Assembly (NCBI RefSeq): GCF_013122565.1
Contig: NZ_CP053258.1
Direction: 5' to 3' (one strand)
Source of the DNA: Escherichia coli
GTDB lineage: Bacteria; Pseudomonadota; Gammaproteobacteria; Enterobacterales; Enterobacteriaceae
DNA length: 64,000 nt
Part shown: positions 36,470 through 43,311 of the stretch, piece after piece
Layout: every line of letters begins with the position of its first letter
Position numbering within the stretch: the first letter of the stretch is position 1
Translations under genes and position numbers: made by a program
The notes under the pieces: generated by a model
What the model was told of the DNA's origin: nothing
The model's input: the letters and a program-made list of their open reading frames with translations, nothing else
The model's database searches: none

Positions 36470-36597
36470 TTTTGCCTCAATTTTGCTCAATCACTTGTTT
36501 TTAAAGCAGCAAATTAAGAATAGACGTGAATGAAATGGCAGTAAATATTCGCTCAATGAATTAATAAGGTGCTGTGAAGGATAAGGGCAAGCGCAAA

Positions 36598-36700
36598 ATT
36601 GCCAGAAGCGCTACGTTTATCTGGTCTGCGCGGTCATGGCAACATATTGAATATAAATGTTTTGTAGGTTGGAGAAGGCGTTCACGCCGCATCCGACATT
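36598..36700. repeat. REP/BIME element
   Basis: AGGCGTTCACGCCGCATCCGACA plus a degenerate REP at 36601-36628. Confidence 0.65.
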
Positions 36701-36726
36701 AATAACACGCACTTAGCTAATAATCA

Positions 36727-36753
36727 GAGGCACCTCGTAAGGTGCCTTTTTTT
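36727..36753 (+). terminator. Hairpin with T7 tract at the 3' end of yqjG (convergent/bidirectional terminator)
   Basis: GAGGCACCTCGTAAGGTGCCTTTTTTT; the T-tract overlaps the yqjG stop. Confidence 0.5.
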
Positions 36754-37738
36754 AACCGAAGCGAACATCTCTTCCATGCGGTTCATCGAGATCCTGCCAC
36801 GGACCAATTGAAATAATCCCCGTAGGGTTGATGGTCTTATGGCTGCGGAAGTAATGATTACGGATGTGATCGAAATTGACTGTTTCGGCAATTCCCGGCA
36901 TCTGGTAGATATCACGCAGGAAGCCATACAGATTAAGGTAATCGCTGATGCGGTGCTTATCACACTTGAAGTGGGTCACATACACTGGATCAAAACGGAC
37001 CAGCGTGGTCCACAGGCGAATATCGGCTTCGGTTAGCTGGTTGCCGGTCAGGTAACGATGCTGACCTAAAATCTGCTCCAGTCGCGCCAGCGATTCAAAC
37101 ACTTTCTCCACCGCTTCGTCGTAGGCTTGCTGGCTGGTGGCAAAACCAGCTTTATACACGCCGTTGTTAACGGTGTCATAAATCCAGCCGTTAAGTTCGT
37201 CAATTTTCGTTTGCAGGGCTGGTGGGTAGTAATCACCCGCTTTCGCGCCCAGCGCATCAAACGCGGTATTAAACATGCGGATGATTTCTGCTGATTCGTT
37301 GCTGACGATGGTGTGGTTCTTTTTGTCCCACAGCACGGGCACAGTAACTCGTCCGCTGTAGTGTGGATCGGCGTGGAGATAAAGCTGATACAGAAATTCA
37401 TGTTGATAGAGCGTGTCTCCGGTTGCTCCCGGAAAACTGTCATCAAAGGTCCAGCCGTTTTCAAGCATCAGCGGGTTCACTACAGAAACGGAAATAAAGG
37501 GTTCCAGTCCTTTGAGTTTGCGCATGATCAGCGTGCGGTGCGCCCACGGGCAGGCGAGTGAAACATAGAGATGATAACGATCTTTCTCTGCGATAAAACC
37601 GCCTGTGCCAGTGGGGCCAGGAGCGCCATCGGCAGTGAGCCAGTTACGAAATGCGGAAGCTGAACGTTGAAATTTACCGCCGGTAGATTTGGTATCGTAC
37701 CAGGTGTCATGCCAGACGCCGTCAATCAGTTGACCCAT
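36752..37738 (-). CDS. yqjG: Glutathionyl-hydroquinone reductase (Xi-class GST, 328 aa)
   Basis: MGQLIDGVWHDTWYDTKSTGGKFQRSASAFRNW... with the CPWA active-site motif. Confidence 0.88.
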   Translation of the reverse strand: MGQLIDGVWHDTWYDTKSTGGKFQRSASAFRNWLTADGAPGPTGTGGFIAEKDRYHLYVSLACPWAHRTLIMRKLKGLEPFISVSVVNPLMLENGWTFDDSFPGATGDTLYQHEFLYQLYLHADPHYSGRVTVPVLWDKKNHTIVSNESAEIIRMFNTAFDALGAKAGDYYPPALQTKIDELNGWIYDTVNNGVYKAGFATSQQAYDEAVEKVFESLARLEQILGQHRYLTGNQLTEADIRLWTTLVRFDPVYVTHFKCDKHRISDYLNLYGFLRDIYQMPGIAETVNFDHIRNHYFRSHKTINPTGIISIGPWQDLDEPHGRDVRFG

Positions 37739-37809
37739 TTTTCTCTCCTCCAATAGCAAAAACGAGGAGCGTTTCTCCTCGTTTTAAAATTGCTGGCAAA
37801 CGAAAAACT

Positions 37810-37908
37810 GCCTGATGCGCTATGCTTTTCAGGCCTACGAGGTTTCTGCAATATATTGAATTTGCATGCTTTTGTAGGCCGGATAAGGCGTTCACGCCGC
37901 ATCCGGCA
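37810..37908. repeat. REP/BIME element
   Basis: GCCTGATGCGCTATGCTTTTCAGGC and GGCCGGATAAGGCGTTCACGCCGCATCCGGC. Confidence 0.75.
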
Positions 37909-37985
37909 TGAACAACGCGCACTTTGTCAACAATCTGAAACGAGGAGCTTCCTCCTCGTTTTTTATCGTTAAGTATAGCGCGTGC

Positions 37986-38378
37986 TTACCACTTTTTATT
38001 CAGCAGGCGGTCGATGCTATACGCGCCCGGACCGGTAATTGCCAGCAGCAGGAATCCGCCAGAAATTGTCAGGTTTTTCATGAACATCAGCGAGTTGACG
38101 CCTTCAGCAAAGTTGCTGTGAAATAAAAATGCCGTCAGCAGCGTAAAGCCCGCAGTAAACAGGGCTGTGGTGCGAGTCAGGAAACCGAACAGGACTGCCA
38201 GACCACCACCGAACTCAAGCAGAATCACCAGCGGCAGCATAAAACCCGGGACGCCCATCGCTTCCATATATTGTTGGGTACCCGCGTAGCCAGTAATTTT
38301 TCCCCAGCCTGCGGTAATAAACAGAATCGGCATTAAAATGCGCGCTACCAGTACACCAACATCTTCTAATTTTTTCAT
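37986..38378 (-). CDS. yqjF: DoxX-family inner membrane protein YqjF (130 aa)
   Basis: ORF 37986-38468 with likely start MKKLEDVGVLVARILMPILF. Confidence 0.8.
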   Translation of the reverse strand: MKKLEDVGVLVARILMPILFITAGWGKITGYAGTQQYMEAMGVPGFMLPLVILLEFGGGLAVLFGFLTRTTALFTAGFTLLTAFLFHSNFAEGVNSLMFMKNLTISGGFLLLAITGPGAYSIDRLLNKKW

Positions 38379-38564
38379 CATACTCTCCACTGCGCCACTC
38401 AGGCTGCTGATTGTTTTTTTGTGCAAGGGCGCGGTATTAGCGTCGTTGCTGTCGATGGAGAGAATCATAAACGTGGTGAATGATGATTGTTAGCAAGGAA
38501 AACTGTCAAAAATCTTCAAAAAATTTGAGGTATAAGGCCGGAATGGCTCCGGCCAGAAAGGAAG

Positions 38565-38864
38565 TTAACCGCGAAGCTGTTGCTGCTTGAGGGTCGTTTT
38601 CACCAGACGCCAGGCGCTCCATACGCCAAAACCGCGTCTGGCCCAGCGGACCAGCATATTAGGATGGCGAATCGTCCAGATCGCCATCACACTACTGCCA
38701 ACCAGCGCCCAGGAGCGCAGACTTAGCAGCATATTCCAGCGACGATCGTAAGCGCCTGTTGCCTCCAGCCATTCACGACGACTGGCAGAAAGATCCAGCC
38801 GTTGTTGCTGGATCTGGCTAAGCAGTTGCGCCTTACGTCGTTCACGTTCGACTTTACTGCTCAC
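38565..38864 (-). CDS. yqjK: Small protein YqjK (99 aa, probable GTG start)
   Basis: SSKVERERRKAQLLSQIQQQRLDLSASRREWLEA...; overlaps the yqjE 3' end. Confidence 0.65.
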   Translation of the reverse strand: MSSKVERERRKAQLLSQIQQQRLDLSASRREWLEATGAYDRRWNMLLSLRSWALVGSSVMAIWTIRHPNMLVRWARRGFGVWSAWRLVKTTLKQQQLRG

Positions 38865-39258
38865 GGGACTCCTCCTCGAGCAGCTGCCGATCGTTTGCCA
38901 GCTCATGGCGTGTATGGCGCAGCAAGGTGGATTTACGCGATTTACGTAGCGTCCAGATACCGCCAATCAGTGCCAGTAGCAGCAACACCACGGTGGTGGC
39001 AATCATCGCATTCAGGCGATATTGCGGATCAACCGCCCAAATAATTAGCACCATCAGGCTCATAAGACCAAATGCAGCGAAAAGCATCGTCAGGCCCAGC
39101 ATCAGTAAAAGTTGAAAGAGATTAGCTTTTTCCTCTTCCAGCTCCACCACCGCCAGCCGCAGACGTGTTTCCACCATTTCAACCATGATGGAAACAATTC
39201 GCTGCCCGATGCCCAGAACGCTTTTACCGGGCCCTTGCGCGTGATGAGTGTCCGCCAT
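38854..39258 (-). CDS. yqjE: Inner membrane protein YqjE (134 aa)
   Basis: MADTHHAQGPGKSVLGIGQRIVSIMVEMVETRL..., two transmembrane helices. Confidence 0.8.
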   Translation of the reverse strand: MADTHHAQGPGKSVLGIGQRIVSIMVEMVETRLRLAVVELEEEKANLFQLLLMLGLTMLFAAFGLMSLMVLIIWAVDPQYRLNAMIATTVVLLLLALIGGIWTLRKSRKSTLLRHTRHELANDRQLLEEESREQ

Positions 39259-39260
39259 AA

Positions 39261-39566
39261 TTAACGACGCGACAGCAGAACGCCGAGCACTACACCGATT
39301 GCAGCGCCAATGCCCACGCCCGTCCATGGATTTTCACGCACATACTCATCGGCACGCGCCGCCGCGACACGGGTTTGTTTGGCGATGGCATCACCGGTTT
39401 CACCCAGGCGATAACGGCTCTGTTTCAGTGCCTGCTCCGCTTTGCTACGAATCTTACTCAACTCTTCTTTCGACTTCTCGCCAGATGAGCTAAGCACCTC
39501 TTCCAGCGTATCGGAAAGGGATTTCAACTCAGCACGCAGATGTTCCGTAGTGTGTTCTTTCGACAT
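39261..39566 (-). CDS. yqjD: Ribosome-associated membrane protein YqjD (101 aa)
   Basis: MSKEHTTEHLRAELKSLSDTLEEVL... with a C-terminal transmembrane helix (DUF883). Confidence 0.85.
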   Translation of the reverse strand: MSKEHTTEHLRAELKSLSDTLEEVLSSSGEKSKEELSKIRSKAEQALKQSRYRLGETGDAIAKQTRVAAARADEYVRENPWTGVGIGAAIGVVLGVLLSRR

Positions 39567-39603
39567 AGTTTTCTCCAAGTGAGTAAGTAGTGACTATTGT
39601 GAG

Positions 39604-39972
39604 TTAGTAGTCGCGCGCTTCCAGCTTTTTCAGCTCTTCCTGCGCTTCTGCCAGTTTCCGTTCGCGTTTGGCAATCTTATCGGCATCGCCTTTTTGCTTC
39701 GCCTCGGCTAAATCTTGCTGGCGTTCCGCCACCTCATCTTTCTGCTTTGCGATTTTCTTCTGATGATCGGCACGCAGCTGGCTATCTGAACAGTTGGCCC
39801 GGACTTCACTCAGGGCTTTATTCAGACCGTCAATACGATTCTGGTTTTGGTGTTTTTCGGCATAGCTGATTTCCTTAAGGATATTTTGCTCCTTTTCCTG
39901 ACACAGGGTAGTGGCATAACTACCGGCACTAAGAGCAAAAAGAGAAACAGCTAAAGCGATGCGGTATTTCAT
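39604..39972 (-). CDS. yqjC: Periplasmic protein YqjC (122 aa)
   Basis: MKYRIALAVSLFALSAGSYA signal peptide followed by a charged coiled-coil region. Confidence 0.8.
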   Translation of the reverse strand: MKYRIALAVSLFALSAGSYATTLCQEKEQNILKEISYAEKHQNQNRIDGLNKALSEVRANCSDSQLRADHQKKIAKQKDEVAERQQDLAEAKQKGDADKIAKRERKLAEAQEELKKLEARDY

Positions 39973-40118
39973 TCTTGAACCTTCCATTGTGATTCGGACC
40001 TATTACAAAGGAACGATTGTCCAGACAACGAAGCGGTAGTGTTAACCACCGCCTCATTAATCATAGACAGTTACGGTGAAATCACCAAAGTGAGTGATCT
40101 GTTTCGGATAACAGGAAG

Positions 40119-40502
40119 TTATCCGAAGCGATGAGAGTTATCCCGTAGCCGGGTCAGCCACTGCATAGCCTGACTGTTATTGTCCTGCTGCGCAATGATG
40201 TAGCCTTGGGGCAATGTTCTGTCGAGGACCGCTTTTGCAGCGGCGCTCTGGTCGCTGGAGTCAAAGGTAATTAACAGAGTGTCGTTTTTGGGGGTGATAC
40301 TTTTGAAAGGAATGCCATGAGCGTCAAGGTGATGCCAGATTGAAAAACCGTCTGGCATCGTTGTGCCTTGATGAACGGCACGAATCGCCAGCGTAGACTC
40401 TTGCTGGCGAACCGCGGACCAGGCTAGCAACAGCGTGCCGACCAGAAGTAAAACAGCGCCGGACCAGGCTAGCTGGCGAAGCGACATGCGAGGTATTTGC
40501 AT
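40119..40502 (-). CDS. mzrA: Modulator of EnvZ/OmpR, MzrA (127 aa)
   Basis: [34 protein letters not shown]... single transmembrane helix plus periplasmic domain. Confidence 0.82.
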
Positions 40503-40505
40503 CCC

Positions 40506-41168
40506 TTACCCCCGATTTCCATATTTCTTTTTCCATAACACGACCAGAGAACCTGCCAGGCCAAACACCAGCAGCACCACCGGGAGCAGCATCAGGCATG
40601 ACATCAGCTGGTCCTCGTACTTTAAAAATACCGGCGTTTTGCCGAGCATGTAACCCAGAGTTGTCAGGATCAATACCCACAGCAGACCGCTCATCCAGTT
40701 GAAGAACTGAAAGCGCGCGTTATTCAGCCCTGATAACCCGGCAATCGTCGGCAGCAGTGTTCTGACAAACGCAATAAAGCGACCAATTAACAGCGCCGAT
40801 AAACCGTGTTTATGAAAAAGATGGTGTGCGCGTTGATGATAATGCGCGGGTAAATGAGATAGCCAGTTTTGTACGGTGCGGGTATTGCCCAGCCATCGCC
40901 CCTGAATATAGCTGACCCAGCAACCGAGGCTGGCGGCAACGGTCAGCAGCAGAATCGTTTGCGGGTAACCCATCGCGCCTTTCGCAATCAATACGCCGAC
41001 CAATACCAGTAAACTGTCGCCCGGTAAAAAGGCCGCCGGAAGCAAGCCGTTTTCAAGGAACAAAATTACAAACAAGACAAAATACAACATGCCAATCATC
41101 GATGGATTGGCCAGGGTTTCAAAATCCTGCGCCCACAGGGCTTGCAGCAATTGGGTCAAAAGTTCCAT
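40506..41168 (-). CDS. yqjA: DedA-family inner membrane protein YqjA (220 aa)
   Basis: 220-aa ORF with the DedA/SNARE-associated motif [17 protein letters not shown]. Confidence 0.88.
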
Positions 41169-41512
41169 TCATTATTCCTGGTGAATCGGTTAACGCCACG
41201 CTGGTTTTAAAAGATGCACTACCGCAATGTTATTGCTGTTTTGGTATGTTCTGCGGGTTTGATACATCAACACAGCCTGAACTATTCCCTGTTAAATCGT
41301 GAGATAAGAAAGCATTCAAAAGCATAAATTCAAATTGAATCTAATTGTAACAAAGGTCAACGTTGTTCGTTATCAAAATTACATGTCCGTGGAGTCTGAT
41401 TTTGCTGAATGCAGGGGAGGGTGGCGAGAGGATTTACACAGGCTGACACTTTATACTTTTCGCTTACCGACGAGACAAACAGGCGCATTGCAGCGCCTGT
41501 CGGACAGGAATT

Positions 41513-42289
41513 TCATTTACTGCCGCTGGTGGCTGTATCGAGATGCACCACCGGGTTTTCGGCGAATAGATAGCGGTCGGCATTGAACTCGAAGTCGTCG
41601 CTGGTTTCGTTAAATAACATGATCTTGGTGTTTTCCAGGTGCTGCCACATTGCCAGCTTAGCAGCATGAGGATCTTTGCGAATCAGCGCCTTGAGGATTT
41701 GATCGTGGTCATCACACCAGTTATCGACGGTACGGGAATCAATGTGTTCATGCAGTTTTTTCCAGTACGGGTTATGACTACGCTGGGTCCACATTTTTTC
41801 AACGATGGCCGCCAGGGCGGAGTTCTGCGTTGCCAGAGCTACCTGAATGTGGAACTGCAAATCCCACTCGGAATCACGGAAACATTGTTCGCCGCGCGCC
41901 TGCTCCTGAATGGCCATCAGTTTCATGATGTCCTGTTTCGTCACCTGAGTTGCCGCGAACTCGGCAATATTACTTTCGATAAGCTGGCGAGCCTGGAGCA
42001 ACTCAAACGGACCGTAATTGGCGAATTCCATATTATTGTCCGCCGCCTGCTGATGGCGCGGCTGGTTGGAAACTACATGAATACCTGAACCTTTACGCAC
42101 CTCCACATAGCCTTCAACTTCCAGCATGATGATGGCTTCACGAACTACTGTACGGCTGACATTCTTTTCATCGGCAATAAAGCGTTCGGCAGGTAGTTTA
42201 TCACCCACCAGATAGACGCCCTGTTCGATGCGCTCTTTCAGGTCAGCGGCAAGTTGTTGATACAAACGGCGTGGTTCAGTGATTTCCAT
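41513..42289 (-). CDS. exuR: GntR/FadR-family hexuronate regulon repressor (258 aa)
   Basis: 258-aa ORF with N-terminal GntR helix-turn-helix and FadR-type C-terminal domain. Confidence 0.88.
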
Positions 42290-42583
42290 ATGCGTCTCCC
42301 GGAGTGGAATGCGGTCGAAGTTATCATACCACTTTATTTATGGGTATGCCATGGGGGGGGTTATTACTGGTATTTATATAAAGTTAATACATATATGTAA
42401 TTTGTATCTTTATAAATTCCTAATTTTTAGCACCTTCCATTGATGGATTTCATATTTTTCAGTAGGTTAAGAGCTGTTCTGTTAAATATAATTTATATCA
42501 TCAATAGATTATTGTTTTGACATTTGCCCCCTCAATCAATTTAATGCACGCATTCGGTAACTTTCGTAAAAGAAAATATCATT

Positions 42584-43285
42584 GTGAAATGCATAAAAGT
42601 TCCATTTATCCTGGCGTGTATTCTTTTTTTCTGGTCAATACCAGGACAAGCAAATATGACGGTCTATCCTATGGCGGTTTCAATTAACAGCCAGGGGGAA
42701 GGAAGTGTTCGCGTAATATCTAAAAGCAATGAAGTTCAATATATAAAAGCGACAGTATTTCGTATTGACAATCCTTCAACACCTCAAGAGCAGGAAGTTG
42801 AAATAAAATCCGGAGATGCTACTCATCTGGTAGTGATGCCGCCTAAGTTCGCGCTGCCAGCGGGTAGCAGTAAGACTGTGCGCTTTGTTGCAATGGAACC
42901 GGAGCAAAAAGAAAAAAATTATCGCGTTAAATTTGAAGCGGTTCCCAGTATTGATGATGTTGCCACGGATAAAAAAGATCTCTCTATGCAGTTAACAGTT
43001 AATTTAATTTGGGGCATCGTTGTTAGCGTCCCCCCACAGGATCCTGTTATTGCTTTAAAAACGAATTCCCGCGGTGAGTTACTTAACGATGGGAATCAGC
43101 GAGTAAAAATTCTTACTGTTGATTACTGTAATTCCGCTTCCTGTAAAACACAGACGGTAAACAAAAATCTCTTTCCAGGACAAGTAAGAACGTTAGACGG
43201 CATATCTGGCTACAATAAAATTGTGGTCAAATATAATAACTGGATCACTAAAGACAACGGTGAAGTTGAACTAGTAATTCATTAA
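42584..43285 (+). CDS. Class 5 (CFA/I-CS1 type) fimbrial periplasmic chaperone, CfaA/CooB-like (233 aa, GTG start)
   Basis: Signal peptide MKCIKVPFILACILFFWSIPGQA; mature region (TVYPMAVSIN...SVRVISKSNEVQYIKATVF...LPAGSSKTVRF...YRVKFEAV) aligns with recalled CfaA motifs. Confidence 0.75.
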   Translation: MKCIKVPFILACILFFWSIPGQANMTVYPMAVSINSQGEGSVRVISKSNEVQYIKATVFRIDNPSTPQEQEVEIKSGDATHLVVMPPKFALPAGSSKTVRFVAMEPEQKEKNYRVKFEAVPSIDDVATDKKDLSMQLTVNLIWGIVVSVPPQDPVIALKTNSRGELLNDGNQRVKILTVDYCNSASCKTQTVNKNLFPGQVRTLDGISGYNKIVVKYNNWITKDNGEVELVIH

Positions 43286-43311
43286 TGTGTTTTTTAAATA
43301 AAGGAATAGTA

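Follow-up and report, generated by a model that had tools for sequence, protein, structure and literature searches.

The window, that is, the whole 64-kb stretch of DNA analyzed here, contains the genes yqjF and yqjG on the minus strand, which is their sense strand, separated by a spacer of 247 bp. The features of this region are as follows.

36752 to 37738, minus strand: yqjG, glutathionyl-hydroquinone reductase (from the RefSeq annotation of matching E. coli DNA)
37761 to 37785, no strand assigned: hairpin copy H1, AACGAGGAGCGTTTCTCCTCGTTTT, one target copy, the downstream one on the sense (minus) strand
37786 to 37938, plus strand: complete BIME-1, 152 to 153 bp, a whole unit that recurs at other E. 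coli loci with ~90% identity
37786 to 37807: left outer arm of the BIME-1, 22 bp
37808 to 37838: inverted Z1 REP, which aligns with the Z1 of other copies
37839 to 37873: L linker, in which the L motif was found
37874 to 37908: Y REP, matching the Y pattern with 0 mismatches
37909 to 37938: right outer arm of the BIME-1, 30 bp
37939 to 37962, no strand assigned: hairpin copy H2, AACGAGGAGCTTCCTCCTCGTTTT, the second target copy, the upstream one on the sense strand
37972 to 37978, minus strand: CTATACT motif between the yqjF stop and the hairpin, near-invariant across genera
37986 to 38378, minus strand: yqjF, DoxX family protein (from the RefSeq annotation of matching E. coli DNA)

Read along the sense strand, the yqjF stop codon (37986-37988) is followed by H2, the REP pair, H1, the Shine-Dalgarno sequence GGAGGAG (37745-37751), and the yqjG ATG (37736-37738), with 21 nt between the yqjF stop and the A-tract of H2. 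The first hairpin in window coordinates, H1 (AAAAACGAGGAGCGTTTCTCCTCGTTTT, 37758-37785), pairs 37763-37769 with 37775-37781 around the loop CGTTT, and H2 (AAACGAGGAGCTTCCTCCTCGTTTTTT, 37938-37964) pairs 37941-37947 with 37952-37958 around the loop CTTC; both share a core stem of 7 bp, CGAGGAG/CTCCTCG. Across the 64 kb there are exactly two matches to CGAGGAG-N3-6-CTCCTCG, and 100 shuffles gave none. Each hairpin has a folding energy of -16 to -20 kcal/mol, with z-scores of -5 to -6.6 against shuffled sequences on either strand. The duplicated segments (25 nt at 37761-37785 and 24 nt at 37939-37962) are direct repeats with two differences, spaced 177/178 bp apart in a repeat search of the window, and they adjoin both ends of the complete BIME-1. 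An initial annotation of this stretch had named the flanking genes yqjG and yqjF, in agreement with RefSeq, and had described two near-identical GAGGAG hairpins bracketing a REP element. Both hairpins are present, 1 to 2 nt away from the coordinates it gave, the two REPs do lie between them, and folding of each hairpin, which it had proposed as a check, gave structures far better than the shuffles.

The insert corresponds in every respect to BIME-1 (also RIB/RIP; REP doublets, “REPINs”), which consists of a Y and an inverted Z1 REP joined by a long L linker with an IHF site (PMC3333891). These elements are ca. 140 to 150 bp long and occur as one copy per locus, extragenically, at the 3′ ends of transcription units (PMC3333891; PMC1187871). 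The window element has one Y and one Z1 REP in inverted orientation and a long linker whose L motif (TGCAATATATTGAATTTGCA, 37847-37866; a predicted IHF site) is conserved in all copies. The Rfam family ES036 matched 37831-37873 on the minus strand above the gathering score, and naRNA4 gave a partial match over the Y REP (37877-37913); a scan of 36500-39000 for leaders or riboswitches returned only these REP/BIME-derived families and weak chance matches. At least 80% of the 152-bp unit was matched in 5,425 of 5,426 E. coli genomes, with ~90% identity and at several loci, and the insert, including its non-REP arms, belongs to a repeated unit of 152 to 158 bp found at srmB/yfiE, entD/fepA, yhaC/rnpB, and other loci, i.e., an interspersed extragenic repetition. 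The outer arms are imperfect inverted repeats (left, TTTGAGACTGATGGCAAACG; reverse complement of the right end, TTTCAGATTGTTGACAAAGTG), and comparison of the copies placed the element ends at ~SAGAYTG...CARTCTS. The descriptions of BIME-1 in the literature covered do not mention two features seen here, a complete local terminator hairpin duplicated at either end and conserved inverted outer arms that serve as termini.

The state of the locus without the element was obtained by megablast of positions 37500-38200 against 5,426 complete E. coli genomes. Only 88 genomes matched the full 701 bp; the other sampled genomes matched 523 bp in two pieces, exactly 178 bp less, and the best identity to the window at the yqjF-yqjG locus was 97.4%. 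Some 98% of the genomes have one hairpin and no BIME, with a spacer of 69 bp, and this empty allele was found in every sampled E. coli identity class. In the alignment, the empty-allele hairpin is composed of the left flank of H1 and the loop and right flank of H2, so that its loop, in the common E. coli form, is identical to that of H2. Adding a 153-bp BIME-1 and a second copy of AACGAGGAGC(G)TT(T/C)CTCCTCGTTTT to the empty allele gives the filled one, and the duplicated 24 to 25 nt run from the first A/T residues at one foot through the entire stem and loop to those at the other. Repeats at both ends of the element and a single copy in the empty allele are the arrangement of a target site duplication.

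We also collected the YqjG loci of 80 species. Of these, 62 have a yqjF-yqjG spacer of 61 to 81 bp in which a single hairpin (AAAGCGAGGAG-loop-CTCCTCGCTTTTGCTAT) precedes the yqjG Shine-Dalgarno sequence; they were aligned and include Citrobacter, Salmonella, Klebsiella, Enterobacter, Kosakonia, Kluyvera, and other genera. With one E. coli empty allele added (n = 63 sequences), RNAalifold predicted 11 pairs, four of them with compensatory changes, the covariation expected of a terminator stem. Because 62 other species carry one hairpin with compensatory stem changes, the single hairpin is, on this comparative evidence, ancestral and selectively maintained across the Enterobacteriaceae, with the BIME and the second hairpin derived. 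Neither the 80 species loci nor the E. coli alleles sampled included tandem hairpins lacking an insert.

Other genera show this spacer to be a hot spot for small repeats of other kinds: Klebsiella oxytoca has an ERIC-like insert, Kluyvera and Citrobacter sedlakii have palindromic inserts of 36 to 50 bp, and Superficieibacter and Enterobacter sp. ENT03 have REP doublets. Most of these inserts lie downstream of the hairpin or in its place, and the hairpin is not duplicated.

In form, the ancestral hairpin, read on the sense strand, would be an intrinsic terminator of yqjF, with a G+C-rich stem of 7 to 11 bp, a 4- to 5-nt loop, a sense-strand U-tract, an upstream A-tract, and covariation; the U-tract reads UUUU(U)GC in the empty allele and the outgroups. 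It departs from the usual intrinsic terminator in lying ca. 10 nt upstream of the Shine-Dalgarno sequence of the next gene and in the unusual conservation of its GAGGAG/CTCCTC (Shine-Dalgarno/anti-Shine-Dalgarno-like) sequence, and we refer to it as a putative terminator. A promoter and terminator scan flagged H2 on the plus strand alone; H1 on the sense strand probably escaped it, as the A/T extension may be treated as part of the stem, so the scan is uninformative on function.

To see the same junctions elsewhere, a metagenome scan for the L motif (120 loci) and an HMM of the element (87 full-length matches) were reduced to 22 distinct sites. Most young-looking sites had a direct repeat of the whole local GC-rich hairpin at both element ends, a pattern noticed by eye and then tested. 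Representative pairs are listed below.

metE/ysgA, flanking hairpin repeats: CGGGTGGTAACACCACCCGT / CGGGTGGCAACGCCACCCGT
rutG/ymdF, flanking hairpin repeats: ACCGCCGGTTACCCGGTGGTT / ACCGCCGGTAACCCCGGCGGTT
L125, flanking hairpin repeats: AGCCGCAACCGCGGCTT / AGCCGCACATGCGGCTT
K-12 srmB/yfiE, flanking hairpin repeats: ATGCCAGGTTTAAGCCTGGTATT / ATGCCGGGTTTAATCCCGACATT

Junction-anchored hairpin repeats of 17 to 25 nt, scoring above the maximum of 200 mismatched-flank controls, were present at nine of the 22 sites, and unanchored alignment scores were also higher than those of the controls (Mann-Whitney p ~1e-3). The repeat is not of fixed length and tracks the size of the local hairpin. A perfect hairpin foot lay within 4 nt of 20 of the 44 element ends, compared to 1.9% of random windows, an enrichment that is overstated because the random windows are mostly coding rather than 3′ intergenic DNA. 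On both strands the junction has the same build, the hairpin, then zero to three mostly T residues, then SAGAYTG; at most junctions, whichever the strand, SAGAYTG is directly preceded by a T, which is inseparable from the terminator U-tract. The remaining 13 sites showed no clear repeat, which fits decay and would also fit a second insertion mode. Among these is the presumably old fepA/entD copy, which is fixed (5,345 genomes) and in which no repeat could be detected, in keeping with erosion of the duplication over time. The window repeat is the best preserved among the sites, which fits a relatively young, polymorphic insertion.

Empty alleles at three of these sites gave the same answer as yqjF-yqjG. 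Exactly one hairpin was left at metE/ysgA (indel of ~172 bp), at rutG/ymdF (indel of ~174 bp; filled in 1,734 E. coli genomes), and at mog/satP (indel of 173 to 176 bp; filled in 467 E. coli genomes). All four clean filled/empty pairs, yqjF-yqjG included, therefore differ by the element plus one hairpin, and at all four loci BIME-1 is present in some genomes and absent from others, a type of variation among isolates known since 1997 (PMC1187871). The short allele at katE/chbG, considered as a further empty site, is a sequence replacement rather than a clean one and was not counted.

At metE/ysgA (L126), katE/chbG (L137), srmB/yfiE (L005), and rutG/ymdF (L105), the differences between the two hairpin copies are often compensatory within a copy, e.g., GGTGGT..ACCACC versus GGTGGC..GCCACC or CCAGG..CCTGG versus CCGGG..CCCG. 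These could reflect either selection on both copies to fold or quasi-palindrome correction.

Taken with the empty alleles, these sites lead us to conclude that the two hairpins very probably derive from one ancestral terminator-like stem-loop between yqjF and yqjG, duplicated when a complete BIME-1 integrated at it; the direction of change at any one polymorphic site within E. coli is what we infer from sequence comparison. The insertion of the BIME into an existing terminator had been one of two suggestions of the initial annotation, and it is supported by the single-hairpin empty allele in ~98% of E. coli and in 62 other species. The comparison with BIME-free strains that it had called for returned exactly one hairpin in the empty alleles. 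It had also counted conservation of only one hairpin in other genomes against its reading; one hairpin is indeed what other genomes have, yet this is evidence for insertion. Its other suggestion, a composite mobile-like unit in which the hairpins travel as the ends of the BIME, would account for the symmetric arrangement in the window and is refuted by the locus-specific hairpins that flank the same BIME-1 elsewhere, which are unrelated to one another and match the empty allele of their own locus. Moreover, the CGAGGAG hairpin is native to the yqjF-yqjG spacer in 63 species, and the junction query matched at most two places per E. coli genome (median, one), so that we give such a unit almost no credence. 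Hardly better placed is a history in two steps, with tandem duplication of the terminator first and a later BIME-1 insertion between the copies. The end state at a single locus, taken alone, is compatible with it, but insert-free tandem hairpins are missing from the 80 species loci and the sampled E. coli alleles, and the same two steps would be needed at nine or more independent loci, which makes it very improbable.

As to how the duplication might arise, we propose that integration would be guided by the structure of the target hairpin. On each strand, the 5′ end of the element (SAGAYTG) would be joined just 3′ of the hairpin foot; because each strand would be joined 3′ of its own foot, the two joints would be staggered by one hairpin length, and gap repair would then copy the hairpin. 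The geometry would be no different if a nuclease cut an extruded hairpin or cruciform at its base. A serious rival is copy-choice replication, in which a strand stalled past the hairpin switches at A/T microhomology to a BIME-1, returns, and copies the hairpin again. Strong hairpins can form in both the target and BIME-1, short runs of A/T overlap the junctions (TTT on one side, AAA on the other), the repeats are longer or shorter according to the hairpin, and no enzyme known to act on REPs makes duplications. However, the element boundaries (SAGAYTG...CARTCTS) are sharp and uniform at all loci, which end recognition fits better, and the junction residues are not always A/T, as at L126 and L105; we regard template switching as unlikely, if worth serious attention. 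Extending joining at hairpin feet to a rule, by which BIME-1 and probably related REP doublets (e.g., the E. albertii element described below) have the feet of intrinsic-terminator hairpins as their specific integration sites, symmetrically on the two strands and with a duplication length set by the target structure, is a step we take tentatively, as a possibility somewhat short of probable.

Within Escherichia, the filled allele was found in 88 to 104 E. coli genomes, including SMS-3-5, against ~5,300 empty ones. The E. coli filled allele is 92.7% identical to the window across the left junction. The copies in the window, in E. coli of the F-type, and in Escherichia sp. E1V33 are mutually the closest BIME-1 relatives (94 to 97% identity, compared to 88.6 to 91.2% for their best match at another locus) and have diagnostic linker characters in common. 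Since they are nearest mutual relatives with common linker characters, these copies descend, as far as sequence comparison can tell, from one insertion. Independent insertions for the window and the F-type, suggested by their different left arms, were ruled out by the same linker characters and relationships. The difference amounts to five substitutions over 12 nt and has the look of a conversion patch.

The window left arm (37786-37800, AAAATTGCTGG) differs at five of 12 positions from the orthologous alleles of E. coli and E1V33 (GAGACTGATGG) and resembles the srmB/yfiE copy (AAAAGTGCTGG), which suggests a short gene conversion between BIME-1 copies.

In E. albertii (L011), two copies of the same hairpin enclose a BIME-1-like element of 152 bp (~74% identical) that runs in the opposite orientation and has REP types of its own and a linker other than L. 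E. coli E69 (L009) retains a remnant of the albertii type with one REP, the right arm, and H1 only. The E. albertii element would have arisen either through a second insertion at this hairpin or through exchange of the insert. In all filled alleles, E. albertii included, the first loop position is A in H1 and G in H2, a common difference that is awkward for fully independent insertions, so one ancient duplication with repeated loss has to be considered. In such a history, the duplication and the BIME would be ancient in Escherichia, and the single-hairpin E. coli alleles would be secondary, produced by precise deletion between the 25-nt repeats through slippage or recombination across the palindromic insert. 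The polarity of change within the genus would then differ from that of the reading we prefer, while the origin of the duplication as an insertion footprint would be the same. This fits the occurrence of filled alleles in E. coli, the window lineage, Escherichia sp. E1V33, and E. albertii, the close mutual relationship of the window, F-type, and E1V33 copies together with the 5 to 6% divergence of the insert between alleles, the H1-A/H2-G difference, and the H2 loop of the empty E. coli hairpin, as a right-arm crossover would give; absences of BIME-1 were, moreover, reportedly termed “excisions” by Bachellier et al. in 1997 (PMC1187871). On the other side, all other genera and Escherichia sp. 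MOD1-EC7003 are empty, the empty allele occurs in every sampled E. coli identity class, and transfer of the filled allele by homologous recombination explains the patchiness equally well. We consider an ancient duplication with later losses possible but rather doubtful.

Several known systems resemble parts of this footprint. Bacterial class C group II introns insert after intrinsic terminators. They likewise have a hairpin target, but the terminator is not duplicated, and the element and the enzyme are different. Relatives of IS1202 make unusually long target duplications. In the IS1202 group, a palindromic target and long duplications are likewise combined, and these insertion sequences encode their own transposase, unlike BIME-1. 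The targets of this group are XerCD sites, as summarized in 10.1101/2022.12.17.520857. Bacterial MITEs such as ERIC/IRU, Correia, and Nezha are similar in being short and non-autonomous, with terminal inverted repeats, flanking repeats, and filled and empty sites (PMC3184786); however, their duplications are short and fixed (e.g., TA or 5 bp), while that of BIME-1 varies with the target hairpin and always covers it. REPs have been described as lacking MITE signatures (Delihas 2011, PMC3184786).

The presumed mobilizer of REPs and BIMEs, and the candidate from the literature, is RAYT (TnpA_REP), a relative of the IS200/IS605 transposases, a family reported to leave no target duplication (PMC3333891, PMC2817692). 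The likeness to IS200/IS605-RAYT lies in the sub-terminal REP-like hairpins, the activity at the hairpin foot, and the strand-specific joining near a short target motif. These elements are reported to lack terminal inverted repeats and target duplications, in contrast to the BIME-1 sites, which have a 17- to 25-nt duplication, found here and at eight other loci, and the same junctions on both strands. Since the RAYT family is reported to leave no duplication, RAYT either acts differently here or another activity is involved. We found no description of a hairpin-length duplication at BIME or REP ends in the literature covered, which leaves out the primary papers of the 1990s, and so we make no claim of priority for the general pattern.

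The yqjF-yqjG locus itself is ordinary, one more BIME-1 presence/absence polymorphism with the filled state as the minority allele. The insertion leaves the ribosome-binding context of yqjG intact, and its local importance is small. It is the general footprint that is of interest and potentially valuable, as a clue to how these elements spread. REP and BIME elements were discovered some 40 years ago and make up roughly 1% of the E. coli genome, and to our knowledge their insertion has never been seen. Their insertion mechanism is not fully established (2026 preprint). Three features make up the footprint: the target is a terminator hairpin, the hairpin is duplicated in full, and the junctions on the two strands are identical. 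Together they constrain the mechanism in a testable way and conflict with a simple IS200-like model, which predicts no duplication. The footprint would explain the location of BIME-1 at the 3′ ends of transcription units and provides built-in direct repeats that permit clean excision. If integration at hairpin feet is true, it would be a mode without description for RAYT/IS200-type elements or bacterial MITEs and the first footprint-level evidence of how REPs and BIMEs colonize gene 3′ ends, and it would account for both terminator proximity and the precise loss of BIME-1.

On the sense strand, the two hairpin copies differ in their tracts. In H1 the U-tract (UUUUUGC) is intact; 9 nt separate this copy from the yqjG Shine-Dalgarno sequence downstream of it, and the insertion left everything between H1 and the yqjG start as it was. 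The U-tract of H2 is interrupted by the end of the BIME (UUUCAGAUU), with only UUU before it, and its A-tract is kept. Transcripts of yqjF would thus reach H2, with its broken U-tract, first, the REP hairpins next, and H1, with the full U-tract, last; the yqjF 3′ region would acquire REP hairpins, and the context of the yqjG Shine-Dalgarno sequence and ATG would stay intact. REP hairpins elsewhere stabilize the upstream mRNA or modulate termination (2026 preprint). The left arm of the hairpin on the sense strand, GAGGAG (window 37763-37781), mimics the yqjG Shine-Dalgarno sequence (37745-37751), the right arm, CUCCUC, is complementary to it, and the primary sequence of the stem is conserved across genera far beyond the needs of a plain terminator. 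An alternative pairing hiding the yqjG Shine-Dalgarno sequence is conceivable and was not favored in a predicted 66-nt fold.

Some other features of the region were also observed. The segment CTATACTGA right after the yqjF stop, upstream of the hairpin, is near-invariant in 63 enterobacterial species, more so than its surroundings. The CTATACT motif resembles a -10 box; were it one, a yqjG transcript would begin with the hairpin at its extreme 5′ end. No -35 to go with CTATACT turned up in the promoter scan, which did not flag the motif itself either. A second REP-type element lies directly downstream of yqjG (36574-36752), with weak Rfam matches to naRNA4 and isrD, and abuts a terminator-like hairpin, GGCACCTCGTAAGGTGCC, followed by T7 (plus strand, 36731 onward). 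Finally, positions 38400-44400 (exuR, yqjA, and a CS1-type fimbrial cluster) had a best match of only 90 to 93% identity among the 5,426 complete E. coli genomes, a collection that does not include the strain of the window, unlike the coding flanks of yqjG and yqjF, which are ~99.5% identical to E. coli genomes.
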